From: Deltaproteobacteria bacterium TL4 | GTDB lineage: Bacteria; SAR324; NAC60-12 | Length of the DNA stretch: 64,000 nt | NCBI GenBank assembly: GCA_051382335.1 | Contig: JBBCAX010000168.1 | Span: 11,915-75,914, forward strand | Reading direction: 5' to 3' | Shown: piece after piece, positions 39,997 to 64,000 of the stretch | How the letters are laid out: each line of letters starts with the position of its first letter | Position numbering within the stretch: position 1 is the stretch's first letter | Notes under the pieces: generated by a model | Told to the model about the DNA's origin: nothing | Seen by the model: only the letters and a program-made list of their open reading frames with translations | The model's database searches: none | Made by a program: the position numbers and the translations under genes

Positions 39997-41715
39997 CTAT
40001 GTTGGTTGAAAAGCATTTCCAAAGCATCCGATGAGGATGATGACAACTCCCATTACAACCATCCAGGTTTGAAGCGCCAGCCCTCCAATGAGTCCCAGAC
40101 AACCAAGACTTAACAGCAAGGGCCAAGGCGAGAGAGGCGTGAGATAAACCTTTCCCGACGCCTTAGGCGGAGTATAAGGGGTATTTTCTCCTTCAGGGGT
40201 GTGTTTCAAGTTCCAGAACGCATTCCGTGCATTGACTTGTGGCACTACCGCGAAGTTATAAGCAGGAGGAGGCGAAGGAATACTCCACTCCAGCGTATGT
40301 CCATCCCAAGGATCCATTTCCTTCTGAGCGACCCCTCGCATTCCACGCATCAAATTGAGTACCCCCGCAAGATTTGCGGCGACGCTGACAAGAATCCCCG
40401 TTCTCACCAAACCTTGTACTGAAGGGGGAACCCACCCCGCAGGATAAATGTAGCCTTCAGAAAGAGAAACCTCGGAAATGGAAAGGAGGCTCAAACTCAT
40501 CAAGTAAAAACCTAAAGAATAAAAAACAAAATGAAGCATGGCCATCTTCTGATCGTACATTTTTCCAAATATTTTGGGAAACCAAAAGTACACTCCGGCA
40601 AATAACGCATTAAGCGTCGTGCCGAAAATCAAAAAATGAAAATGGCTTGTCATATAATAGTGGGACGGGCTTTGCACACTGCCTAAAGAAATAAACTTTG
40701 CCGCACCACTAATTCCACATAAAACAGGAGTAACAAGAGCCATTATGGCAAAAAATAAGGCAATATTAAACGTAAACGTATAGCGCGTAAAGTGCAGTAT
40801 TGCCGCTATCGCCTGAAGACTTAACAGAAAAAACGTGCCTAACATGAATAGAGCGCTTGCCGGATTCAGCGTATCGGATTGTGTAAACAAAGCCATCAGC
40901 CAGGCCAACAGGGCCATGCCCGGAATGAGGGCACTGATCCCTAATTGAAACAGATACCCTTTCAACAAACGCTTGGAACATACAGGGATGATGGTAAGCG
41001 CGATACTTAGAGCAGGGACAACAAGGACGAGTATTTCGGGATGTAGCTTCCAGGATAAGGGCTCAGACCAGGCGAAATCTGCCGTTTGAATGAGAGCGTA
41101 TAACTTCATGGTCCAAAGTTGATCCATTAAGCGCAACAACGCACCTAAGCCGATCAGCGGCCAAACTAAAAGCCACGTTGAACAGGTAAAAATAACAGCC
41201 CAGACAAACAGCGGGATTCGACCCAGACTCATCCCTGGAGCACGTAAATTCCAGATAGTCACCAGGAGATTCAAACTCGTACAAACGATGGAGAGTGACA
41301 GCATCAAAGTGCCTGAGGGAGAACCACTCAGTAATTGAAGGTTATATTCTCCAAACAGAATAATGAGGCTTCCCCATAAAAAGCACCACCACCCGAAAGT
41401 CTGCAAGCGCGGAAGCGCCATGGTTCCCGCACCGATCATCAAAGGAACCAGATAATTAAACAGACCAATCAACAGAGGGTAGAGGACCAGTAATAGGGAC
41501 ATTCCATCGTAAAACGCAAAAAAAGCGGGTTGGGTCTGGGTATACTGAAAATCAGTAATAAAGCGTTGCAGCAGAACGCTTCCGACACCACCAATGACGA
41601 GTAAAACTAAAGCATAAACGATATACAGCAGACCAATACGTTTATGATCAACCGTCAACATCCAACTTAAAGGCCCCCGAGGTTGAAAATAATGTTTGAC
41701 CGAGATCTCTGGCAT
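39997..41715 (-). CDS. Divergent heme-copper oxidase subunit I homolog lacking several metal ligands
   Basis: TVDHKRIGLLY, NYLVPLMIGA, RAPGM..RIPLFVW, HPE, HFH, YFWFPKIFG, TLEWSIPSPPP.YNF; AGGAG before ATG 41715. Confidence 0.9.
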   Translation of the reverse strand: MPEISVKHYFQPRGPLSWMLTVDHKRIGLLYIVYALVLLVIGGVGSVLLQRFITDFQYTQTQPAFFAFYDGMSLLLVLYPLLIGLFNYLVPLMIGAGTMALPRLQTFGWWCFLWGSLIILFGEYNLQLLSGSPSGTLMLSLSIVCTSLNLLVTIWNLRAPGMSLGRIPLFVWAVIFTCSTWLLVWPLIGLGALLRLMDQLWTMKLYALIQTADFAWSEPLSWKLHPEILVLVVPALSIALTIIPVCSKRLLKGYLFQLGISALIPGMALLAWLMALFTQSDTLNPASALFMLGTFFLLSLQAIAAILHFTRYTFTFNIALFFAIMALVTPVLCGISGAAKFISLGSVQSPSHYYMTSHFHFLIFGTTLNALFAGVYFWFPKIFGKMYDQKMAMLHFVFYSLGFYLMSLSLLSISEVSLSEGYIYPAGWVPPSVQGLVRTGILVSVAANLAGVLNLMRGMRGVAQKEMDPWDGHTLEWSIPSPPPAYNFAVVPQVNARNAFWNLKHTPEGENTPYTPPKASGKVYLTPLSPWPLLLSLGCLGLIGGLALQTWMVVMGVVIILIGCFGNAFQPT

Positions 41716-41832
41716 AAACTCCTTTCTGTCTGACAATGATAAAATCTTAAGCCAGTATTAAATTGAACGCACCCTAGCAAAGACAGTGGAATTTTGCAAT
41801 GTTTCTTTCTTACGAACGAAGATCCCGCATCC

Positions 41833-43085: not shown

Positions 43086-46000
43086 TTAGCTTCTTTGAAA
43101 TTCCGCTCGTTCGATCAACTCAATCTGCATATCCCGATTGAGTGTGACAAAGTAAGCGTTATAGCCTGAAATCCGAACCAGTAAATCTTTATAGTTTTCA
43201 GGGTGCAACATTGCGTCTCGAAGGACTGCGGAACTGACAACATTCAACTGAATTTGCATCCCTCCTAATTCCACATAAGACGTTACATAAGCCTTCATAT
43301 TATCCACCGTTTGTTCATGAGTGTCTTCTGCGGAAGGCACAAATTTGATATTAAAGGCAATGTTGTTGTTCATGTGATGTGGATTGAGTTCCGCGACATC
43401 CCGGATGTTGTCCAGCAGATTTTTTGAAGCATGAGATGAAGGCGTCAAACCTGGAGTGAAGGCTTTCCCCGCAAGCCTTCCGGAAGGAAGTGTGCCTGTC
43501 AGACTGCCAAAGGCGACGTGATTGGACATCGACCAGAATCCAGTCGTATAGGGACCTCCACGAAAATTCGTTTTCTGAGCAAAATAATCATGCACAAATT
43601 GAGTTAAGCGATTGGCCATTGCTTTAGCTTCTTCGTCTCCAGAACCGAATTTAGGGACTTTTTTGAGGATGATCGCGTGAAGTTTGGAATGCTCTTCGAA
43701 ATTATTAAGAAGGGCGGATTTCAATTCAGAGAAACTCACAGTTTTTTGATCAAAAACGAGTTTTTTGATCGTCATTAACGAATCCACAATGTCAACCAAG
43801 CCAATGCACGCCACTCCGGACGTATTGTAACGCGCACCCCCTTTTGTGATATCCTTGCCCTTTTCGATGCTTCCCTCAATCATTGACGAAAGTAAAGGCG
43901 TTGGACGAAGAACACTATGGGCTTTTCCAAGGATATTGTTATATTCAACCGACTGATCAATCAGAAACGTCAGTTGTTGGGTGTAGGCGCTGAAAAATGC
44001 ATCAAAGGTTTGAAACGCGCCTTGCTCAATCTCTCCTGTTTCAGGGCCGACTTTCCAATGCATCAAAGGATGATATCCGTTATACAAAGCCATTTCCAGT
44101 GCGGCGACAAGGTTCAACATCATACAGTTGGTGTGTCCCATGTGTTTCCCCGAAATAGTGGGTTCGACACATCCGGTAGCCGCCCAGTCATTCCGATCCT
44201 GTTCCTGGTAATTGAGTTGTTTAATGGCTTCCAGCACAATTTCATCATTGTGAATTGAAGGTGTCGCTGTCGTGATCAGATTGACTTCACAAAGTCGCTT
44301 GAGATACGAATCGCTGTTTTTCAGATGGTGATAACGCGCGTTCACGTTGGGATCACGAATCTTCAACATTTCGGTTACTTTGAGAAAAATGTAAGTCATA
44401 TCGTTCACGGCGTTTTCGCCACTGGGCGTAACGCCTCCCAGGGTAATCGCCTGATCGGAGGAACTTCCTCCAAACAAGTAGTTTCCGATATCAGGTGTTA
44501 ATGGTAAATGATCCGTACAGCGCATGTAAAAACAGCCCACAATCTCAAGAACATGGTGCAGATACGCTGCCTTTGCTTTTGGGGTTTTGAGCTTTGTCAT
44601 ATCCGCCTCAAAATAAGGCTGAAGCCATTGATCCATTCTCCCTAAGGATAACCCCGCATTTGTATTTTCCATGTGCAGGCATACCCATCCAATCCAAATA
44701 GTATTCAGGGCTTCGTCAAGGGTGTTACAACCGTTTTCTGGAGCGGACGCGCAAATTTCGGCAAGGTGTTCGAGTTCCGATTTTCGCTTGGGGTCTTGCG
44801 TCATTTTTGCTTCTGTTTGAGCTTGAAATGATAAGTTTTTACTATAGCTAATCAAGCCTTCCAGACAAATTTGCATGGCTTCCAGCGTAGTTCTTTGCTC
44901 CGTACTTAAGTTTTGATCTTCTTGAAGTTTTTGATCAATTTCATGAATGATTCCTCGTGCGCCAATTTTCAACAATTTAGGAAAATCAGCAATGGTATGA
45001 GAGATCGCGACCGTTTTCCACAAAAAATAAACTGCGAAACGGTCATCTAATTTTTGGCACAGAGGCTCATTATAGTGTTCTCGGACCCACTCCTTAAAAC
45101 AGCGTTTGAACCAATAAGGAAAGACCTCCTTGTGAAGTATTCTGAGATCTTTCTCAGCAACGGAATAAGGGTTTAGTGTCCGCTCAGAGAGCGTTTTCAA
45201 TTCTCCCCAGATCAAGCTTCCATGGGCATCAGGATAAAGGACCACACCAATCGCTTGGGTTGTCGTTGTCCCTGCAATCAGATCGTCTTTGCGAATCATG
45301 GGTTTTTTATTTTCCATCAGATATTTGAAAGCTAACGCTTGTCGAAGTTCAGGAACCCAAGCTTGTTTTGATGAATTTTGTTCGAAGCCATTATGCTGAA
45401 ACCAGCGTGTGAGCAGCAGCGGTCTTTCCACACAGAGTTGCGGCATGATATTAAAATGAATATCCAAAAAATTTTGTAACCGAGGGAATTGTTCCAAGGC
45501 AAACTGAGAAAGAAAAGGATCCTCAAGATGCCGCACCTGATCGGTTTGGGTGGAGGTCAATTCCGCGTGAGGACGCTTCAACACGGGAGCCGGGAGGGAG
45601 GTTCCGTTTTGAGCAATTTCCTTCGCTTTTTCCCTGTCCAACAGACGTTGCGCACGCATCCTTTTTTGATGTTGAGGAGCCAAAAGGAGGGATAAATAGA
45701 AATTGAAAAGCGACATATAGTTCATGTTTCCCTCAATCCGCATTTTTCCATTCATCAGCATCAACAACATTTCATTAGGGCTTACCGTTAAGGCTTCCTT
45801 TGCGCTCTCATCATCACTGTAGATCAAGGTTGCGTTGGCACTAGAGGGAATCTTTGACAGAACCCGCACTTTCCCATCATTGAACTGGATACACTGCTCA
45901 ATGCTTCCGGATTCGGTCCGTATTCCAATAGACGCGTTAATCCAGTCTTCATTGCCGCGTAAATATTTTTTCAATGAGGGCCGAGTGTTGAAGTTCAAGG

Positions 46001-46118
46001 CCATAACCTGTAATAAAAGATGAGCCACCGCATTGGCGATAGTTTTATTTCCTGCAAGAATGCGCTTATAGTGATCCAAAGGTTCACCGGGAAAGAGTAA
46101 ATACAGGGATTGCTTCAT
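43086..46118 (-). CDS. Glycyl-radical enzyme (non-PFL) with N-terminal SCP2-like domain
   Basis: Cys loop ATGCVEP, Gly loop LLVRISGYNAYF, SLGRMDQWL, ITLGG; N-terminal region ending GKMRIEGNM. Confidence 0.9.
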   Translation of the reverse strand: MKQSLYLLFPGEPLDHYKRILAGNKTIANAVAHLLLQVMALNFNTRPSLKKYLRGNEDWINASIGIRTESGSIEQCIQFNDGKVRVLSKIPSSANATLIYSDDESAKEALTVSPNEMLLMLMNGKMRIEGNMNYMSLFNFYLSLLLAPQHQKRMRAQRLLDREKAKEIAQNGTSLPAPVLKRPHAELTSTQTDQVRHLEDPFLSQFALEQFPRLQNFLDIHFNIMPQLCVERPLLLTRWFQHNGFEQNSSKQAWVPELRQALAFKYLMENKKPMIRKDDLIAGTTTTQAIGVVLYPDAHGSLIWGELKTLSERTLNPYSVAEKDLRILHKEVFPYWFKRCFKEWVREHYNEPLCQKLDDRFAVYFLWKTVAISHTIADFPKLLKIGARGIIHEIDQKLQEDQNLSTEQRTTLEAMQICLEGLISYSKNLSFQAQTEAKMTQDPKRKSELEHLAEICASAPENGCNTLDEALNTIWIGWVCLHMENTNAGLSLGRMDQWLQPYFEADMTKLKTPKAKAAYLHHVLEIVGCFYMRCTDHLPLTPDIGNYLFGGSSSDQAITLGGVTPSGENAVNDMTYIFLKVTEMLKIRDPNVNARYHHLKNSDSYLKRLCEVNLITTATPSIHNDEIVLEAIKQLNYQEQDRNDWAATGCVEPTISGKHMGHTNCMMLNLVAALEMALYNGYHPLMHWKVGPETGEIEQGAFQTFDAFFSAYTQQLTFLIDQSVEYNNILGKAHSVLRPTPLLSSMIEGSIEKGKDITKGGARYNTSGVACIGLVDIVDSLMTIKKLVFDQKTVSFSELKSALLNNFEEHSKLHAIILKKVPKFGSGDEEAKAMANRLTQFVHDYFAQKTNFRGGPYTTGFWSMSNHVAFGSLTGTLPSGRLAGKAFTPGLTPSSHASKNLLDNIRDVAELNPHHMNNNIAFNIKFVPSAEDTHEQTVDNMKAYVTSYVELGGMQIQLNVVSSAVLRDAMLHPENYKDLLVRISGYNAYFVTLNRDMQIELIERAEFQRS

Positions 46119-52262: not shown

Positions 52263-52661
52263 ATGAAAAAACTCCTTTGTTCTCTATGCGGAATAGGCCT
52301 GTCTTTGGTGGGCAGTTTTGTGAGTGCACAACAAACACCGCCTTCGCTAATGCTTCTATGTGAAGGTCCGCTGATAGCTGTAAAAATGATGCAACCCTTG
52401 ACTTGCTTCCTCGGTGGAAAAGTTCTGAAATCTACGCTTGATGCGGTTACTCAGAATAATTGGAGAGTCGTTTCAATGGATATTATTGAAGCAGACGTTC
52501 CCAAAGCCTACCTTTTACTTCAAAAGCAAGAGAGTCCCATGAAAGCTGTTGAAGAACAGTTGAGTCAAGTCCAAGAAAAACTAAAAGTTTTAGACACCCT
52601 CAACGAAATATTGAAAGAGCATACCGTCCTTTTGAAAAAAATAGAGGTCAACACGGATTAA
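52263..52661 (+). CDS. Hypothetical exported protein with coiled-coil tail
   Basis: Signal peptide ..VSA-QQ; 132 aa. Confidence 0.6.
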   Translation: MKKLLCSLCGIGLSLVGSFVSAQQTPPSLMLLCEGPLIAVKMMQPLTCFLGGKVLKSTLDAVTQNNWRVVSMDIIEADVPKAYLLLQKQESPMKAVEEQLSQVQEKLKVLDTLNEILKEHTVLLKKIEVNTD

Positions 52662-54199
52662 AGTTGATGTTCCAAAGAGAGTTTTTCAAAATGCGCCTCA
52701 ATATTTTTTAAGGCGAAAGGTAATAAGCGAGGGTCGACGTCCTTATAGATTTCAGCCAGGATCTGGTCTTTGGCATATCCCTTTTGATGGAGGTTGAGGA
52801 CTTGCCTTTCTCTCATTTTTCGATGTTCCAGGGTTACTTCCAAGCGGTAGGTACTTCGGGTTGGAATACCATGAGAGGGGATGATGACGGCAGGATTCAT
52901 TTTGATAATTCGGGCTAAGGATTCAAAATATTTTTTCATATTTCCCTCAGGTTGTCCAATCACCACGGTTCCAATGCCCTGGATTAAGTCCCCAACGATA
53001 AACCACTCTTTCGAAACTGGAGCTAAACCCAGTTGTCCCTCATCATGACCGGGAATCTCATGGACGAGGACTTCGTGTCCAAGCCATTTGGTTAACACAT
53101 CACCTTCTTGCGCGTGGTTAACAACGATATTGTTGAAATAGTTTTTGCCCCATTTCTCTATAATCCGCTCATGGGTATCGTTACTGAGCCAAAGAGGAAG
53201 ATTCAATTCTCGGGCTAACCGCGTTGAAAATTCGTGATGATCAGGATGATGATGGGTAATAAAAATACCTGCGATATTAAAGGAGGCGAGTGCTTTTTTC
53301 AATTTGTTATATTCGTCTTCAGTGTAAGGTGAGGGATCAATCAAGTACGCTCCTTCAGACGGGTCCCCAATGATGAAGGCATTGGTCGCTTTTGCGGGAG
53401 GCAGGGTCCGGGACAAGACAGGAAGTTGATAAACCTGATATAGAAATTGAGCACAAATCATCTGTTGTTTCGGATCGTAACCTTTAAACAATTTTTCCAT
53501 GTGAGGGTTCGGGATCCTTTGAGTAAACGCTTCAATGATTTTAATTGCCGGAGGAACCATCAGAAGTTGTCCTTGATGATATTGTTGGAGCAGATTTTGA
53601 GGAAGTTCCCACTCCTGGAATTCGGTTTCATGCGGATCTATCGAGAAGGCAATCGGCTCAGTTAATTCAATTCTAAAAAAATAGGTGTTGAAACGATTAG
53701 GGTTATACTCAGGCGTCACCGCAATTCCAAGATCCACAAAGTCCACAACTTGTTCATTTTTGATGGACGCCTCCAGGTCAAAATTTAATTCCTCCTTAAG
53801 TTCTCGGCACAACGCTCTCATGATGTGGGGAGAGTGATCTTTCAAGAAAGGGAGGTCCAAGGGAGTGTCTGGCTCATTCGCATCAACCTTCCCTCCAGGG
53901 AAAGCATGGTAACCTGGAAAAGCGTTCAGTCTCACGGATCGTCGGATCATAAAAACCTGATCCTTACAGGTAAATACTGCGGTAACGGCGTCTCGTATTA
54001 TTTTTTGTGGCCTCCTCGATCCTGGTTTGTGGAAGGTGCCTTTCAACAGGTCTGATAAAGGAAGATGCTTTAGTGTTTTGAAGAGGGTAAGCGGTTGGTC
54101 ACTTAATAAAAACGCTTTGGATTCTTGGAGCGTTCCTTTACTCCAGTAATTGACTCGAGAAGCTTTCTTTGATAGATGATGAAGTAGGTTGTTGATCAT
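52658..54199 (-). CDS. NUDIX + metallo-beta-lactamase (LACTB2-like) fusion hydrolase
   Basis: FPGGKVD...RELKEE; THHHPDH, PGH, GD, PSHG, C-terminal winged-helix-like tail. Confidence 0.88.
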   Translation of the reverse strand: MINNLLHHLSKKASRVNYWSKGTLQESKAFLLSDQPLTLFKTLKHLPLSDLLKGTFHKPGSRRPQKIIRDAVTAVFTCKDQVFMIRRSVRLNAFPGYHAFPGGKVDANEPDTPLDLPFLKDHSPHIMRALCRELKEELNFDLEASIKNEQVVDFVDLGIAVTPEYNPNRFNTYFFRIELTEPIAFSIDPHETEFQEWELPQNLLQQYHQGQLLMVPPAIKIIEAFTQRIPNPHMEKLFKGYDPKQQMICAQFLYQVYQLPVLSRTLPPAKATNAFIIGDPSEGAYLIDPSPYTEDEYNKLKKALASFNIAGIFITHHHPDHHEFSTRLARELNLPLWLSNDTHERIIEKWGKNYFNNIVVNHAQEGDVLTKWLGHEVLVHEIPGHDEGQLGLAPVSKEWFIVGDLIQGIGTVVIGQPEGNMKKYFESLARIIKMNPAVIIPSHGIPTRSTYRLEVTLEHRKMRERQVLNLHQKGYAKDQILAEIYKDVDPRLLPFALKNIEAHFEKLSLEHQL

Positions 54200-56496: not shown

Positions 56497-57387
56497 TTAA
56501 TTTTGTTTCTCTGGAACGAGTGCTCCCGGCTGATATTTTTCCAATTCCAGCCAGATCGTGCCCACTTTGACTTCTGCCTGCACTTGAACAAGGGGGCGGT
56601 TTTTATTTTTTGCAATCCAGAGCAACACCTCTCCCTTTTGTTGAAGTTGCTTTCCAAGATAAGTCGTCAGTTTGATTTTATGGGTGTCATAAACGCCAGC
56701 CGGCACCTCGATTTGTTCTTCTGCAAGAGGAAGAGCCTCAAGCCACCAGTTTTTTTCTGAGGTATAAACCAGGGTTCTTGCTTTTTCTCCAACGGTATAA
56801 GATAGGGTTCTCAGGTAAAATAACATCCCTAACGCATCATTTGCACCATAAGAGAGGTTAAATTCGTATTTTTTAACTTTGCCATCTTTTTTATTTACGG
56901 TTTCATAAACCTTACAATTTTGATGATCAAAGACTATCCATTTTTTTTCAATAAAAGGCTTTCCTAAAAACCCCTTTTCATACTGTTCCATTTGAAACTT
57001 TGTGATGCGAAAATCAAAGGGGTTTGAAACGGCTTCCATGAAATCATTGACGGCAAAAATGGGTTCATACCATTTGCCGGATTTGACGGTGCCCAAGAAA
57101 ATCCGCTGCCAAACTCCCTGTTCCAACACGGGTTTTTTAACTTTCAGGATGACATATCCCGCAAATATTCCAGAATAACGCACCTGATAAGTCGCATTCT
57201 CACCCGTTTTAAAAGGAACTTGCTCATAAACAGCTTCAAAAGGAATTTCGGGGTCAGGCGAGTCAGGCAGAGCACAGGTTTCAGAGGGCATGGAAGGCGC
57301 GGCAAAAGTGAGACAGGAGGACGTTATTAGTAAGATCAGGGTTGTTATAGAAAACAGTGAGTCCATCAGTCTCATCGCAACACTCAA
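56497..57387 (-). CDS. DUF3108-like exported beta protein
   Basis: PFKTGENATY.V.Y.GI.AG, D.L..LFYLR, IEVPAGVYDT, LWI. Confidence 0.78.
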   Translation of the reverse strand: MSVAMRLMDSLFSITTLILLITSSCLTFAAPSMPSETCALPDSPDPEIPFEAVYEQVPFKTGENATYQVRYSGIFAGYVILKVKKPVLEQGVWQRIFLGTVKSGKWYEPIFAVNDFMEAVSNPFDFRITKFQMEQYEKGFLGKPFIEKKWIVFDHQNCKVYETVNKKDGKVKKYEFNLSYGANDALGMLFYLRTLSYTVGEKARTLVYTSEKNWWLEALPLAEEQIEVPAGVYDTHKIKLTTYLGKQLQQKGEVLLWIAKNKNRPLVQVQAEVKVGTIWLELEKYQPGALVPEKQN

Positions 57388-57407
57388 TGCTATCGGTTTA
57401 TATTGGT

Positions 57408-57872
57408 TTAAAAGGTTGCGTCGGAGTTACAAACTTCTTTGCAGGATTGTTTTTTATGTCCACAATCCGCCTCAATCAACTGACCATTCCGACATTCACA
57501 TCGTCCTTTTAAACGGGGATCCACAGCATCCGTTTCGGGAATATCCAATGGAATTTTGGGAACCTCAGGGTCACAAACCAAATCCTGACGCCACACATCC
57601 TTCATTTGTGTCGGGCCAGGAATATATCTCGCCGATTTGATGGGTTTAAAAGAAAACCGGCATTCTTGCAAACAATCATTAAATACTTCGTCGCACGCAG
57701 GACCTTTTAAATAAAACTCCACTTCCCTACAATTAGGAAAGCCCCACTTCGGATGCTGTCTTAGACAACTATTGATACAGGGTTCAGGGTTTTCATTTGC
57801 TTCAGCCGTAACGCTATGAAGAAAAAGACCCCCCCCCAAAATCATCTCCAGAATAATAAAATAACGCATCAT
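57408..57872 (-). CDS. Cysteine-rich exported hypothetical protein
   Basis: Signal peptide; 12 Cys in about 130 mature residues. Confidence 0.65.
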   Translation of the reverse strand: MMRYFIILEMILGGGLFLHSVTAEANENPEPCINSCLRQHPKWGFPNCREVEFYLKGPACDEVFNDCLQECRFSFKPIKSARYIPGPTQMKDVWRQDLVCDPEVPKIPLDIPETDAVDPRLKGRCECRNGQLIEADCGHKKQSCKEVCNSDATF

Positions 57873-57885
57873 AATTCCAATGGGT

Positions 57886-58683
57886 TCAAGGCGCCAAGTT
57901 TCTACGCTTTAAAAACTCCAGGCCTAAAGCGTGATAATCTTGTGCTCCACGGCTTCGTGGAGCATAATCAAAAATTGTTTTTCCATGACTGGGACTTTCT
58001 GCCAGGGAGACCGTGGAGTGGATCAGGGTTTCAAAACATTGAGAACCAAAACGCGCTTGCATGGATTCAACGACTTCACAGTGTAACTTTTTTCGTCCGT
58101 CATAAAGCGAGCCGATGAACCCTCCAATTTCGAGTTTCGGATTGATCTTCCGCTTTTTTACTAAATTGGTAACTTCGAGTAACTGACTGATCCCTTTTAA
58201 AGCAAAATATTCCGTTTGATAGGGAATCAAAACTTCATTTGCCGCGGCAAGGGCATTGAGCGACAGCAAACCTAAGGACGGAGGACAATCGATAAAGATA
58301 AAATCATAGTCCTTGTCTATGGGTTCCAGAATTTCAGATAACAGCGATTCTCTACCCATCATCCCTGCCATTTCCAGTTCTGCAGAAGAAAGTTCCAGGT
58401 TTGAGGGAATCACCTGGAGTTTAGGAAGGTTGGTTTCATGAATAACAAACTCCAAAGGATTAGGCTTTTGAAACTCTTTTGTGGGACGCTTCAGCAAGGC
58501 ATTATAGAGGGTCCACTCTAGTTGCTCAGGATTAAATCCAAAATGTGCTGTTAAATTTCCTTGAGGATCCAAATCAATTACTAATGTCGCATAGTCACGT
58601 TCCGCTATTGCCGCAGCAAGATTGGCCGTGACGGTGGTCTTCCCAACTCCTCCCTTTTGGTTGATTACGGCAATAATGGTCAT
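57886..58683 (-). CDS. ParA/Soj-family ATPase (no parB nearby)
   Basis: NQKGGVGKTT, DLDPQGN, IDCPPSLG, LAESPSHG; start at ATG 58683. Confidence 0.92.
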   Translation of the reverse strand: MTIIAVINQKGGVGKTTVTANLAAAIAERDYATLVIDLDPQGNLTAHFGFNPEQLEWTLYNALLKRPTKEFQKPNPLEFVIHETNLPKLQVIPSNLELSSAELEMAGMMGRESLLSEILEPIDKDYDFIFIDCPPSLGLLSLNALAAANEVLIPYQTEYFALKGISQLLEVTNLVKKRKINPKLEIGGFIGSLYDGRKKLHCEVVESMQARFGSQCFETLIHSTVSLAESPSHGKTIFDYAPRSRGAQDYHALGLEFLKRRNLAP

Positions 58684-58945
58684 TGATGATCCTTTCCTCA
58701 AGCTTGATTCATTGAGCTTGTTTTCTTCTTTATGGGGTTGATTCACCGCCGACATTGAAACGGTCTTTATCAAAAGCAATATTCTCTAACGGTGTCTAGA
58801 TGATTTTTGTTTGCAGTGCAAGCGGGAACTGGAGGAAAAGCAAATAATGAATTGTTTGACTGGTGCCCTCAGGCTGCAGTTTGAGTGTGGACAGATAAAT
58901 CGCTTCAGCTAACACAGCCTTGGACAAGGTCATTGACACGTTGAC

Positions 58946-59061
58946 GATCCCGTCTCACCGGATATCTCCGGGCAGCACAGCCGCAGCCTCAAGCGGAAGA
59001 ACTGTGCTGCGGCAAGAATCCGTGTCTGAAACACGCCGAAGAGTTTCACCGGGAGGGGATC
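58946..59061. other. GC-rich multibranched stem-loop element (repeat or structured RNA)
   Basis: Pairs GATCCC/GGGATC, CCGGA/TCCGG, GCAGCACAG/CTGTGCTGC, CCGC/GCGG, CGTGT/ACACG. Confidence 0.4.
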
Positions 59062-62000
59062 AAGAATAACAAGTTCTATTAATAATGGCGATTTTTAATT
59101 CATCAGAAAGTTCATTGAAATAAGCGCAATAACCAGCGACACGAACCAGCAGGTATTTATGTTTTTCCGGGTTTTTATAAGCATCCAGTAATATTTCCCG
59201 GCTTAAAATATTGGGTTGGAATTGCATCCCACCCTTTTTGAAATACGCGCTGATGAGTCCCGCCAGGTTTGAGGGGCCGTCTTCACCTTGAAATAAGGCT
59301 GAATCAATGGTGAACGTAACAGTGGTTCCATTGGGGGCGTATTTTACAAAATCAATACCGGCAATGGAATTCAGTGAGGAGACTAAATCCAGCATTTGCA
59401 TTCCATAATGTGGGGCAATGCTATGAGCCAGGGGCACGCCGCTTAATCTTCCTGAAGGCAAGGCGGAGGTCATCGAACCATAAACGATATTGACATTCAG
59501 AGCGTAATATCCCGCGGTATATATTCCGTTTCTGGGACAAGTTTTCACGGATTTCAGCGCGTTAACGTAAATTTGCAGCACCTGATTGACCCAAGCCTGT
59601 GCTTCCGGTGCCGCGTCATTACCAAATTTTGGCACCTTTTTTAAGGCGGTTCTTATTTGTTGATAAGAGTCCCCTTCAAAATTCGCGTCAATCGCGTCGA
59701 TGATCTCATTAATGGTGTACAGTTTTTTCTTATAAACAACTTCATTGAGGGCATATAACGAATCCGCGACATCGGTAACTCCCACGGCTTGGATACCGCT
59801 GCTATTCAAATCAGCACCCCCTTCATACAGATCTTTTCCACTTTTAATACACCCCTCAAACAGAGAGGAGGCGAGAGGTGTCGTGAATTTTTCGCGAAGT
59901 GTTTTTTCAATGTCATGATGCGTGGACAAGACCGAGTTAGCCAATTGATTCATGCGTAATTGATACCGTTCAAGAAGTTCTTCCATACTCTCAGGTGAAT
60001 CATAAAAGTATGAAAATACTTTCCTTTTCAGATTTTTATAGTTCTTGCTAATGATCGGGGTGACACGCTTGGTGAGACGATTATTGAAATGATGATCTAT
60101 GAATTTTGTAGTTATTTTCTCAAGTTGGTAAGAGGAATCATAATTCCACAAATCAAAGTCTTTCCCCTTCAACGCCTGCAGAAAAGGTAAGACAATATTC
60201 ATATTCGCACAATCCGTGTTTCCAAAATGGTCATTTGACGCAACAGGTTCAACACAGCCCACAATGGAATAATTTCTGGCTTGTTGTAATGAAGTGGTGG
60301 GGTAATGCTTTTTTAAGGTCTCAATATAAATCTCATCATTATACAAAGCCGGCATGGGGGCTCCATTAATATAAACCTCCGCAATTCTTTCCAGATATTC
60401 TTTGGGGCTGTGATTATGAATTCTCGCTGTCATATTCGCACCCCGTGGTTGCAGTTCACAAATATCCAGCAGCATATAGGTTACCTCATTAGTCAGATCA
60501 TTTCCCTCTTCATCAACGCCTCCAAACGTCACCGATTGAACGGTGGAAAGGCTTTCAAAAAGTCTTCCAATGCCCAGGTAGGTATCTCCATCATTGACAA
60601 TCACCACTTCGTCAATTTTGAGAATAAAACAGGCCAAGAGTTCTTTCGCTTTTTCATAAGTAAGCAACCCTGCTTCTTGATCCCGTTTGAAGTAGGGATA
60701 TAATATTTTATCCAGTCGTCCAAAGGAGATGGCATTTTCAAAGGACTCGGTACACAGCGCGATTTGTAAAAACAAGATGCTTTGCAAGGCCTCATGAAAT
60801 GTACGAGCGGGATATTTAGGGACGTGTCGGCACACCTCCGCCATTTTTGCCAGTTCCGTGCGGCGTTTTGAATTCTTCTTGGTATTTAGATATTTTAAAA
60901 GTTTATCCGCATAGCGTTCCGCAAAGACTTCCAAGCCTCTGAGTCCGATTAAAGCCCCGTTATAAAAATCTTGATTATTATCAGGCGCTTCTTTTTGCTT
61001 TTCTTTAATTTCCTCAATAATGCCGCTTGTTCCAAGGTTCAGCATCCGTTCGTGGTTCACCACAAAATGCGCGATTGCCGCCTGATTATTATTAAATCCG
61101 ACTTTCAACCTGGACCCCCGTGCCAGCAGTAACACCCAGTCCGCAAAGGAAGGATACATATCCCTGATCAGGCTATGCTTTGCCCAAAAGGGAAAAATGT
61201 TGGTATAAAAATTGACTTTATCCTCCAAAGAACACTTGAAGGGGACAGGGGTTTGAGTATCGATTTGGTGGATAATCGCGATCAGACTGATTCCATAGTA
61301 TTCCTCCCACACATGTCCCGCCACTCTTTGTGCTGTAAAATTTCCCACGATTAACTCTTTTGGATAAATCCAAATTTTTTTATTTTCCAGTAAATACGCC
61401 AGTCGTTCGGTTCTGTGAAGGTGGGGTGATTTCCCAAAACCATGCTTCTTATAAAAATTGGTCTTAAGATTTGCCGTTTCAAAACAAAGGTGACACTCAC
61501 TTTCTCTAATCTCGTTCTGGATCGCATGCACCCGCTTGGTAAAAGTCGCTTTATGTTTGGTAACATCCAATTCCACACAATGGGCCTGAATGCCAAAGGT
61601 TTTGAATAAGTTGGCAGCTCGCTTAACGGCAGCGATACTCTGCTCATTGGTAATATTTAAGGAAGGGCTAAACAATTTTAAACGTTTAATTTTTGCTTCG
61701 TACATGTTGTGATATTTCAACAGTTCAATGGAGTCATGCTTGATTGATTTTAAAAATTCCGCGGTTGCCTTTATATTGCTGCTTTTATTATTGTGTTTGG
61801 GTACAACCACCATGCGAAATTGAATATTGGCATTTAAGGCCACAAGCTTTTGGATATTACTGTGGATTAATTGGCTTTCCTGTTTTTTTAATTTCACATG
61901 AAGTTTATCATCACCAACAACCTTCAAATCAATCAGAAATAAATCGACATACGGCGCAACGGCCTCAATATTTTTCCAAGGCACATGGGCAGCGGTTTCA

Positions 62001-62395
62001 ACAGCGAGATGAATGTTCTCTTGCTTTAACAATTTCAATAAGTGGATGAGACTCGCTGAGTGCTGTAAAAGGGGATCCCCGCCACTCAGTGTTACGCCAC
62101 CATTGCTTGCGACATAGTACTCTTTATCTTTCATCACAACGTCCATGATGCCAGCCTCTGAGTAATCGCAAACCTCCGGGACCTCCTTGCGAAATGATAG
62201 GGCTTCGGGATTTTGACACCATAAGCATCGCAACGCACATCCGGAAAAGAAAATGACAGTACGAATACCAGGGCCATCATGAACACAAGTACGTTGTATT
62301 TTTAAGACTTTAAGTTTTTCAGTGTGGACCTTGGGATATTCGGGAAGATCCGTGTATTCGGTTATGGTTTCACGATAATTATGAGCGGTCTGCAT
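59060..62395 (-). CDS. Radical-SAM GRE activase fused to a glycyl-radical enzyme
   Basis: HDGPGIRT..F.GCALRCLWCQNPE, GGVTLSGGDP; then SFGRLD, IVGCVEP, LLVRVAGYCAYF in one uninterrupted frame; AAAGGAG before ATG 62395. Confidence 0.93.
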   Translation of the reverse strand: MQTAHNYRETITEYTDLPEYPKVHTEKLKVLKIQRTCVHDGPGIRTVIFFSGCALRCLWCQNPEALSFRKEVPEVCDYSEAGIMDVVMKDKEYYVASNGGVTLSGGDPLLQHSASLIHLLKLLKQENIHLAVETAAHVPWKNIEAVAPYVDLFLIDLKVVGDDKLHVKLKKQESQLIHSNIQKLVALNANIQFRMVVVPKHNNKSSNIKATAEFLKSIKHDSIELLKYHNMYEAKIKRLKLFSPSLNITNEQSIAAVKRAANLFKTFGIQAHCVELDVTKHKATFTKRVHAIQNEIRESECHLCFETANLKTNFYKKHGFGKSPHLHRTERLAYLLENKKIWIYPKELIVGNFTAQRVAGHVWEEYYGISLIAIIHQIDTQTPVPFKCSLEDKVNFYTNIFPFWAKHSLIRDMYPSFADWVLLLARGSRLKVGFNNNQAAIAHFVVNHERMLNLGTSGIIEEIKEKQKEAPDNNQDFYNGALIGLRGLEVFAERYADKLLKYLNTKKNSKRRTELAKMAEVCRHVPKYPARTFHEALQSILFLQIALCTESFENAISFGRLDKILYPYFKRDQEAGLLTYEKAKELLACFILKIDEVVIVNDGDTYLGIGRLFESLSTVQSVTFGGVDEEGNDLTNEVTYMLLDICELQPRGANMTARIHNHSPKEYLERIAEVYINGAPMPALYNDEIYIETLKKHYPTTSLQQARNYSIVGCVEPVASNDHFGNTDCANMNIVLPFLQALKGKDFDLWNYDSSYQLEKITTKFIDHHFNNRLTKRVTPIISKNYKNLKRKVFSYFYDSPESMEELLERYQLRMNQLANSVLSTHHDIEKTLREKFTTPLASSLFEGCIKSGKDLYEGGADLNSSGIQAVGVTDVADSLYALNEVVYKKKLYTINEIIDAIDANFEGDSYQQIRTALKKVPKFGNDAAPEAQAWVNQVLQIYVNALKSVKTCPRNGIYTAGYYALNVNIVYGSMTSALPSGRLSGVPLAHSIAPHYGMQMLDLVSSLNSIAGIDFVKYAPNGTTVTFTIDSALFQGEDGPSNLAGLISAYFKKGGMQFQPNILSREILLDAYKNPEKHKYLLVRVAGYCAYFNELSDELKIAIINRTCYS

Positions 62396-62503
62396 AGTTA
62401 CTCCTTTGAATGATGCCACAAGCGCTTTTCATGGAGGCCGTTAACCACCAGAACACGCATTTCGCAAAAATATTTCTTCAGGTTTATCAAATTCCCCATT
62501 TAA

Positions 62504-62527
62504 AATTGGTTGGACCAATATACCAAT
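62504..62527. promoter_or_regulatory. GntR/FadR-subfamily (PdhR/LldR-like) operator candidate
   Basis: AATTGGT-TGG-ACCAATA plus extra half-site TACCAAT, about 110 nt upstream of the fusion gene. Confidence 0.6.
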
Positions 62528-62805
62528 AGTAGCTTGATAAATTTTAAAAAGCAAAGATTTTCTGCGTTATTGGGTTGTGGCACAAATGCCTATTTCGCGA
62601 CAGCGACTACATCCCAGTTAATCACTACAAGGTATTGACACTATAGTTTAATTGTTGTATTTTGCTCATCATAAAATTCAACAGGTTGTCAAAACTTATA
62701 ACCTCTGCAAATAATTCATCCAATAAAAAGGACTATGACGATTCCGTTTAAAAAACGCTCTAGAGGAGAAATATCGGCAAAACGTATAGAGCTAAGCAAA
62801 AAACG

Positions 62806-62966
62806 GGGGTTGGTCACATTTTCGGCCATGTGTCAAAAATTTGATCTTTGAGGTTCCACCTGATTTGTGTTTTATCCCGTAGGGGCAGACCTGTGTGTCT
62901 GCCCAGGATCAGGGCGAACACACAGGTTCGCCCCTACAAATTGTGGCCGAAAATATGACCAACCCC
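62806..62966. mobile_element. MITE with 23-bp TIRs, flanking direct repeat and internal GTAG REP doublet
   Basis: GGGGTTGGTCAcATTTTCGGCCA ... TGGCCGAAAATaTGACCAACCCC; AAAAAAC(G) on both sides; GTAGGGGCAGACC...GGTTCGCCCCTAC inside. Confidence 0.8.
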
Positions 62967-63279
62967 AAAAAACGCAAGACACACATCCAGTCAGTAAAAG
63001 ATGGAAGCTATGAAGAAATTCTTCCTAAAACCTTAGCCCCTTCTTTGTTTTCGTGATTCAAAAGTGATTTTAGAAGAATTTCGAGATGAACAAAAACAAC
63101 ACGATCTTGCTGATGAAACCTCTCAAATACAAAAAAAAAATTCTCAAAAAAGAAGAAATGACTGTATCAACAGCGAAACAGGTTGTCGTCGTAACTTCTA
63201 ACAAAAACCCGAACAAAAAAGATGGGTAAGGTTCATAGGTTACTCCTGATTTATAGTTCATAAAAGAAGAATTCCTTTT

Positions 63280-63516
63280 TATTTTAGAGTGACGGAACAT
63301 CTAGCAAAGTGCGCTTTCTGAGTATTTTCCAAGACTTGACCTCGAAAATTTAGCCCAGCAAACGGAATTGTTTAGCGCAATAGCCAAGCAGCAAAACGAA
63401 AGCCAAAACTTTTGAGCATTGGACAGTTTGGCCGATGGAGAATGCTCTTGAAGGACTTGAACTATTTCATCGATAAAAGCTTTGATAAAGGGCAGCGGTT
63501 CATCAATTAACATCAT
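63280..63516 (-). pseudogene. DDE transposase N-terminal fragment (IS701/IS4-like) with nonsense codon
   Basis: MLIDEPLPFIKAF...WLSFC...NSVCWAKF.R.SLGKYS..ALC*MFRHSKI: TAG at a likely Trp position, then truncation. Confidence 0.6.
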
Positions 63517-63614
63517 CCATCTCACCTAAGGTAGCAATAATTCTCTGAAACAATGTAAGCCAATCTATATCACTTCTGAAAATCATTCAAATTCAAAAAA
63601 CTTGATCATCAAGT

Positions 63615-63872
63615 TTAAGGTTTGTAAAAATTAAGCGAGGGGATCGAGAATAAATATCCTTGCGAATAGTGAATTCCTATGGCTTCAAGAACATCTTGAA
63701 TGGGTTGACTTTCAACATATTCCGCAATCACCTCCGCGCCTATGCGTTGTCCAAGGTCGAATACATTTTCAACGATGATACGACAATTTTTTTCGGTAGG
63801 TAAGTGTCTGATAAAACAGGCGTCAATTTTGATATAATCGGGTTCAAAGTCCAAGAGTCTGCTAATATTGGA
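63615..63872 (-). pseudogene. EAL phosphodiesterase C-terminal fragment
   Basis: SNISRL...PDYIKID, VIAEYVE, QGYLFS; the upstream DDFG motif is absent. Confidence 0.72.
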
Positions 63873-64000
63873 CGGGCGCATTCCCATTTTCCGGGTCATG
63901 CGTTTTCGATCCGAGGATCCTTTACTGATGACATAGTTTCCAAATGTTGATATCTTCCCTCCAGGAATTAATTGGATTTAATAGTTTTACGGAGGAATGA

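Follow-up and report, generated by a model that had tools for sequence, protein, structure and literature searches.

An activase-glycyl radical enzyme fusion in Deltaproteobacteria bacterium TL4: candidate chemistry, regulation and relatives

A 64,000-nucleotide stretch of contig JBBCAX010000168.1 from Deltaproteobacteria bacterium TL4 (assembly GCA_051382335.1), here called the window, contains one open reading frame (ORF) in which a radical-SAM activase is followed by a glycyl radical enzyme (GRE). Do the two parts form a true one-chain enzyme, and on what would it act? The fusion itself is practically certain to be real. The reading of its function that we prefer, with a probability of about 0.42 judged from sequence comparison and a structural model, is a one-chain glycyl radical system performing CxE chemistry on a lipid-derived alcohol. 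The fusion is a new architecture of a known kind of enzyme, apparently unstudied.

The ORF (protein P0001, 1111 aa) occupies positions 59060..62395 of the minus strand, from the ATG at 62395 to the TAA at 59060, and has no internal stop. A preliminary description of this DNA had reported such a frame of about 1110 aa, and the activase and GRE motifs named in it were all located. The good ribosome-binding site also noted there is the Shine-Dalgarno box AAAGGAG (62401..62407), 5 nt before the ATG; this and all features in this paragraph are on the minus strand. The GRE-activating radical-SAM domain spans residues 26-273 (61577..62320) and scores 199.9 bits with the NCBIfam model TIGR02494 (cut-off 174.35), which places it among GRE-activating enzymes. 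It contains HDGPGIRT (residues 39-46), the CxxxCxxC motif of the [4Fe-4S]/SAM site (C53, C57, C60; 62216..62239), invariant in 120/120 and 150/150 sequences, and SGGDP (residues 104-108). The C60-to-S104 spacing is 41-45 residues across the 150 aligned members of the family, and the ferredoxin motif CxxCxxCxxxC occurs in none of them, as expected from the absence of a ferredoxin insert claimed earlier; most GRE activases carry such an auxiliary domain. A short linker (residues 274-285, 61541..61576) of nearly fixed length follows; the stretch 266-288 has 22-24 residues in all 150 members, and F285 and R288 are invariant. The rest, residues 286-1111 (59063..61540), is a GRE barrel, PFL2/glycerol dehydratase/propanediol dehydratase-like by Pfam, phmmer and fold comparison. 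Its Cys loop GCVEP (residues 713-717, 60245..60259; C714, E716) is invariant in 150/150, and the glycine of the Gly loop RVAGY (residues 1085-1089, 59129..59143; G1088) is present in 149/150, the remaining sequence being truncated. The Pfam matches are Fer4_12/Radical_SAM at 40-204, PFL-like from 286 and Gly_radical at 990-1094; PF02901 and PF01228 are above the cut-off, as in members of the GRE superfamily.

The fusion recurs. Of 1929 hits, the 119 best listed are without exception full-length fusions, with all four domains and 62-74% identity; none is split into two genes, a possibility that the preliminary description had proposed to check by a domain search. When the GRE part alone was scored, no stand-alone GRE was found among the 119 best, and the 10 shortest start inside the activase. 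On the DNA level 93 loci were confirmed and the best 80 kept; 78 of them cover the junction and two are cut by contig ends. At 77 of the 78 the junction is crossed in one stop-free alignment, in line with the reported lack of a stop or frameshift at this point, and at locus L004 the frame changes near the junction. Locus L034 has a break within the GRE, and L062 one at an N-gap. A 290-aa N-terminal extension at L075 has no Pfam domain and overlaps the upstream gene; it was read as an early start codon.

By record title the 80 loci belong to Bacillota (17), Thermodesulfobacteriota (17), Myxococcota (16), Spirochaetota (15), Bdellovibrionota (2), Pseudomonadota (1), unplaced bacteria (7) and archaea (5), and the hosts include Smithella and Asgard archaea. 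The clade is common among uncultured anaerobes and spans at least six bacterial and archaeal phyla. Within the phylum of the source genome the fusion was observed in one of 88 genomes, the source genome alone; thus it was probably acquired laterally. In databases the homologs go under 'formate C-acetyltransferase' or 'radical SAM protein'. The full-text literature searched, which did not extend to subscription journals and supplements, yielded no account of a GRE fused to its activase. The words 'fused', 'fusion' and 'single polypeptide' do not occur in a 2026 GRE review (PMC13450708), and by term searches the fusion is not described in PMC8163825, PMC6776118, PMC3660698, PMC6856725 and PMC11316075.

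An AlphaFold2 model of the fusion, built on the 150-sequence alignment, has a pLDDT of 88.9 and a pTM of 0.90. Residues 26-273 match the E. coli PFL-activating enzyme (3cb8) with Z 30.1 and a root mean square deviation (rmsd) of 2.0 over 241 residues; both have the minimal radical-SAM fold without the ferredoxin domain (241/244 residues). The best fold match of the GRE part is the PFL2/PflD protein of A. fulgidus (2f3o; Z 45.8, rmsd 2.3), which is also the best sequence match (E 3.4e-103). It shares with the fusion the GCVE loop, an E-[NQ]-A strand motif and the RVAG loop. However, it has a separate activase, lacks a basic insert of 45 residues and is only 31% identical. Glycerol dehydratase (GD, 1r8w, Z 45.7) and 1,2-propanediol dehydratase (PD, 5i2a, Z 45.5; also 9rco) are equally similar in fold (Z 45.3-45.7) and have the CxE loop and the catalytic His and Asp positions, but they too have separate activases, and their identity is 27-31%, with 30-31% for 1r8w and 5i2a in the fold comparison.

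The GRE part exceeds the cut-off of no curated NCBIfam model for a characterised GRE. The best match, TIGR01774 (PFL2/glycerol dehydratase subfamily), gives 515.2 bits with a cut-off of 678.2. The scores and cut-offs are 361/1100 for HypD, 321/1050 for CutC, 363/1000 for HpfG, 352/1000 for HpsG, 231/1100 for IAD and 210/1150 for HPAD, all below. For the PFL equivalog TIGR01255 they are 125.6 and 994.2, and the loop is GCVE rather than Cys-Cys. The earlier statements that this is not PFL and that no substrate can be assigned to it both hold.

In the alignment H443, C714, E716, D728 and Y964 stand opposite His164, Cys433, Glu435, Asp447 and Tyr640 of GD, and L966 is opposite Ser642. The eliminase-type features are retained: CXE in 150/150, H443 (the His164 position) in 149/150, and an invariant D728. 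The marks of GD and PD are not. Their ESxGHS strand is replaced by the invariant E553-N554-A555, and their Tyr/Phe at position 619 by Asp (131/150) or Val (19/150). In GD and PD the ESxGHS strand and the Tyr/Phe and Ser/Val positions have roles in substrate binding and specificity. The window protein belongs to the Y366/V619 subtype (19/150), the majority being H366/D619; as residue 619 aligns with the active-site Tyr/Phe, specificity may differ inside the family. The preliminary description had called GCVE typical of eliminases. The CxE loop is indeed there, but according to PMC13450708 it is common to eliminases and GRE isomerases, and so does not fix the chemistry.

According to the same review (PMC13450708, with section 5.6 for the CxE and His mechanism), the radical domain of a GRE first flips out and the activase then creates the glycyl radical; CxE enzymes take hydrogen from a carbinol that the Glu deprotonates, and GD His164 protonates the leaving group. 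In sequence and model the fusion joins an intact activase with three cluster cysteines to an intact GRE with C714, E716, G1088 and H443. Since all catalytic residues are conserved, we infer that the fusion works in this way, its activase being tethered. At the reduced [4Fe-4S]-SAM site a 5'-deoxyadenosyl radical would form and generate the glycyl radical at G1088, within one chain or across the usual GRE dimer, in either case on a GRE of its own family. From there the radical would move to C714, which would take a hydrogen from the carbinol carbon; E716 would deprotonate the OH, and H443 would donate a proton to the vicinal leaving group, be it water, alkoxide or amine, yielding an aldehyde or ketone. 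An aldehyde product could be oxidised and then fed to beta-oxidation. Candidate substrates are a long-chain 1,2-diol, a glycerol ether or monoglyceride-type head group, and an amino-alcohol base. That the activase serves its own family's GRE is highly probable from sequence, and CxE elimination is a reasonably good prediction; a lipid-derived substrate falls somewhat short of even odds. The conserved motifs lead us to infer self-activation by fusion.

The lead to the substrate comes from regulation. A candidate operator of FadR-subfamily GntR regulators, the palindrome ATTGGT-N3-ACCAAT (62503..62521, without strand), lies 108 nt upstream of the ATG; neither it nor the insert described below was noted in the preliminary description. 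In Smithella-type genomes a GntR/FadR gene is found just upstream of the fusion (19 loci, one distant paralogue). Seventy loci had enough upstream DNA for a survey, and 10 were dropped. A core of the ATTGGT-N3-ACCAAT type precedes the gntR-fusion unit in 17 of the 19 gntR loci; among 4000 random windows, 38 contain it. The 6.6 Mb source genome was scanned with a matrix derived from 18 sites of other genomes. Three sites score 20 or more, all intergenic and upstream of genes, whereas six weaker sites (scores 15-19) lie within coding frames; permuted matrices yield a mean of 0.4 strong sites. The three strong boxes precede the fusion, an orthologous regulator gene on contig C270 (the single orthologue in the source genome, about 55% identical) and an aldehyde dehydrogenase (ALDH) operon on contig C302 (L102 3991-10302). 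This operon encodes a 151-aa unknown protein, ALDH, a GMC oxidoreductase, a tocopherol-cyclase-like protein and an alpha/beta hydrolase. It is conserved and uncharacterised, with a counterpart in L136 (G009:C57), and its GMC protein has an extra N-terminal domain. A plasmid search with the cyclase-like protein gave no match. In the relative G009 the same box precedes a hydrolase-GMC-cyclase-like operon and a divergent MMPL-family gene.

The orthologous regulator is present in two of the 88 genomes of the phylum, the source genome and G009, and in three of 401 genomes of a Desulfobacterota-type sample (around G046), each time beside the fusion. Its best matches among PDB structures and NCBIfam models are Rv0494 of M. 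tuberculosis, FadR of E. coli and Vibrio, and the FadR model. Rv0494 is described as a fatty-acid-responsive, auto-regulating FadR-like protein (PMC10370413); a passage of PMC10100808 names the rv0494 operon only. The Pfam domains GntR, FadR_C and FCD are above cut-off in the regulator, which by sequence may be an acyl-CoA or lipid sensor, a candidate role. The products of rv0492c-rv0493c, beside rv0494, are presumably a GMC enzyme and a protein of the cyclase-like type. Because the FadR-like regulator also marks the ALDH-GMC-hydrolase operon, a lipid-derived alcohol with a vicinal leaving group appears the most likely substrate, and an ALDH under the same operator fits an aldehyde product. 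The hydrolase, the MMPL gene, 23 acyl-CoA dehydrogenase matches in the source genome and an amphipathic insert in the GRE also point to lipids. Choline offers a parallel: it is oxidised by GMC and ALDH enzymes and cleaved by the GRE CutC.

This insert is a basic amphipathic two-helix segment (residues 752-798, 60002..60142, minus strand), which lies unaligned between the two HMMER domains of the matches to 2f3o and 1r8w. Among the sequences compared, it and the ferredoxin-less state are specific to the window's family. Its mean net charge over 150 members is +7.8, and 39% of the 150 inserts pass a lipid-binding-helix discriminant, compared with 1-2% for three control helices; the helix region 405-432 passes in 52%. 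This suggests that the insert may dock the enzyme on the membrane.

A number of observations weigh against the lipid reading. The box is found in only one of 51 fusion loci without an adjacent gntR, and all five tested fusion genomes of this kind lack an orthologue of the regulator (best identity 29-34%). Permuted matrices also reach a maximum of three strong sites. The regulator scores 102 bits with the NCBIfam FadR model, below the curated cut-off of 189. G009 keeps the regulator and the operon without the fusion, and has no box before its own gntR. With the strict pattern, four of five gntR-linked genomes have one site and the fifth has none; hence co-regulation with ALDH and GMC is seen only in the source genome and G009. 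The GMC protein was not found in two of five fusion genomes, and among its five matches the three whose surroundings were scanned had no box. In G048 and G049 boxes of a similar type stand before a GntR and a GRE other than those considered here, so the motif is generic for the subfamily. The basic insert could equally bind an acidic electron carrier or donor. Finally, apart from gntR (19 loci) and tetR (4 loci), the neighbours of the fusion are not conserved among the 80 loci.

In its fullest form, the lipid reading would make the fusion the first self-activating GRE family and the first lipid-acting eliminase, docked on the membrane by its insert, controlled by an acyl-CoA-sensing switch, and cleaving C-O or C-N bonds of glycerol-ether, long-chain diol or sphingoid head groups anaerobically. 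This is rather unlikely. If true, it would provide a route into otherwise resistant necromass lipids for Smithella, Spirochaetota, Myxococcota, Christensenellales and Asgard archaea; the co-regulated GMC/ALDH operon would then act as a downstream or oxygen-tolerant counterpart. The operator and regulon are the first concrete substrate lead for the clade. The only structural view of GRE activation is PFL-AE with a 7-mer peptide, and the flip of the radical domain out and back is not understood, with insoluble activases as the main bottleneck, according to PMC13450708 (sections 2 and 7). A natural 1:1 activase-GRE chain, with and without a ferredoxin domain and beside unfused relatives, lends itself to direct tests of the geometry of activation, of half-site loading, of what the auxiliary clusters do and of whether transfer is in cis or in trans.

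The strongest alternative is a small-molecule diol or polyol dehydratase like GD and PD, fused by chance, the link to the regulon being local and incidental. The closest solved folds are GD and PD, the five residues listed above align with those of GD, and the ALDH would serve a short aldehyde as well. Against this stand the low identity (27-31%), the invariant ENA in place of ESNGHS/ESSGHS, L966 facing GD Ser642, and the absence of recurring microcompartment, alcohol dehydrogenase or glycerol-uptake genes among the 80 loci. We consider it unlikely.

A second alternative concerns the activase. Its main targets could lie in trans, either the GRE of the partner chain or a separate GRE such as that at 43086-46118, and the tether would serve only to secure co-expression. 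In its favour are the shortness and fixed length of the linker, the homodimeric state of GREs, whose radical domain is peripheral (PMC13450708), and the lack of an activase gene beside the GRE at 43086-46118. Against it, activases of their own accompany four other GREs of the genome; the same review ties activase specificity to the sequence of the Gly loop, and the orphan has RISGY as opposed to RVAGY; and the activase and GRE identities co-vary (Spearman 0.77 over 150 members, which as kin are not independent). A predominantly trans-acting activase is improbable. A complex prediction of the activase (26-276) with the radical domain (985-1111) scored 0.01 and weighs neither way.

A GRE isomerase, opening a ring or ether by C-O or C-N cleavage without net elimination, as YbiW, PflD and HplG do, is distinctly improbable. 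It would have the same CxE loop, which GRE isomerases keep (PMC13450708), the fold matches PflD with Z 44.7 and YbiW with Z 42.7, and MFS_2 transporters are found near several Bacillota loci. Yet no sugar kinase, phosphotransferase system or aldolase recurs in the 80 neighbourhoods, and the PflD-type TIGR/NF models are far below cut-off (NF007437, 358 against 1109 bits).

Still less can be said for a fumarate-adding activator of hydrocarbons or lipids, the role proposed for Archaeoglobus PflD (2f3o). That protein is the top match by phmmer and VIA and shares the E-[NQ]-A motif, the hosts include Smithella and Asgard archaea, and PMC8163825 files such PFL2-like proteins as Ass/Bss. But BSS and MasD match with E 2.8e-30 and 2.4e-38 as against 3.4e-103 for 2f3o, succinate synthase folds reach only Z 35-37, no small-subunit ORFs recur beside the 80 loci, and the activase lacks the ferredoxin motifs cited for succinate-synthase activases (PMC8163825 and PMC6776118). 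Moreover, the function of 2f3o is itself debated (PMC13450708), and the proposal is very unlikely. An assembly or read-through artefact joining two adjacent genes, for which the activase-then-GRE gene order in the same clade, including contig C336 of the source genome, and the frame change at L004 might be cited, is on the sequence evidence refuted by the recurrence of the fused state in 119/119 of the best homologs listed, the 10 shortest of which still begin within the activase.

A profile search of 50%-identity representatives revealed further activase-GRE fusions outside the window's family. P0122 heads a second fused family: the 118 further hits listed for it include 55 full-length fusions, each with ferredoxin motifs, and 54 proteins of at most 830 aa, mostly unfused sisters (52-61% identity). 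The unfused pair on contig C336 (L081 6736-10006), of the same clade as the fusions, is 46% and 48% identical to P0122; the pair, whose genes overlap by 20 nt, has its own ribosome-binding site. It looks like a pre-fusion or post-fission state. GRE-domain trees, made from subsampled rows with long branches, need two changes of the fused state; a quick mixture-model tree, also with two, is compatible with one origin, and two other trees separate the two fused families. Two fusions, or one fusion and one fission, would account for this, and a single origin may be the case. The anaerobic protist Anaeramoeba flamelloides has a fusion with a ferredoxin insert on megabase contigs (P0123/P0270, KAJ3428281.1 and KAJ6231265.1), represented by a protein of 1136 aa. 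Its loops are degenerate (Cys loop GSCE, Gly loop PLSGN), and it may be catalytically altered or dead. P0124, named Waddliaceae bacterium, is also fused; the loop of its GRE reads GCCE (Cys-Cys-Glu), a cysteine pair as in PFL but in a non-PFL clade.

For the second GRE of the window (43086-46118, minus strand; 1010 aa, GCVEP, RISGY), which has a paralogue on contig C53 (L084 1308-4358), a 220-aa N-terminal extension shows weak similarity to the lipid-binding domain SCP2 (E-values 8e-4 and 4e-4, narrowly missing the cut-off). The related P0142 matches SCP2 with E 2.6e-7, and the C53 paralogue has an adjacent activase and an upstream tetR. SCP2-extended GREs are a possible second lipid-acting GRE family. 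Elsewhere in the source genome, a GRE on C220 (L082) follows enoyl-CoA hydratase and acyl-CoA dehydrogenase genes. Downstream of that on C253 (L083) come its activase and a PNPOx-like gene, and its orthologues in G048/G049 stand under a different FadR-type GntR. C186 (L086) encodes a stand-alone glycine-radical domain of 113 aa. A heme-copper oxidase subunit I family protein (PF00115) is encoded at 39997-41736 (minus strand), near the two oxygen-sensitive GRE genes of the window; this suggests a host meeting both oxic and anoxic conditions, or NO reduction.

Around the fusion, sigma-70 promoter and terminator scans gave chance-level results only, and Rfam had no match across 57000-64000. In favour of the lipid reading, at other loci a related GMC gene is directly upstream of the fusion (L043) or within 5 kb (L024), and aldehyde:ferredoxin oxidoreductase is directly upstream in L054/L058. 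Directly downstream in the window is an orphan ParA-type ATPase (57886-58779, minus strand), and further on a NUDIX-metallo-beta-lactamase-fold fusion (52658-54199, minus strand); neither recurs beside the homologs. Upstream, a short palindromic repeat (62876-62945), REP-like by appearance, has 40 BLAST matches in the genome. Small ORFs span 63070-63899. They include a possible transposase fragment without a Pfam hit (63301-63525), about 90 nt of which are repeated on three other contigs, and an isolated piece from the C-terminal part of an EAL domain (63615-63899).

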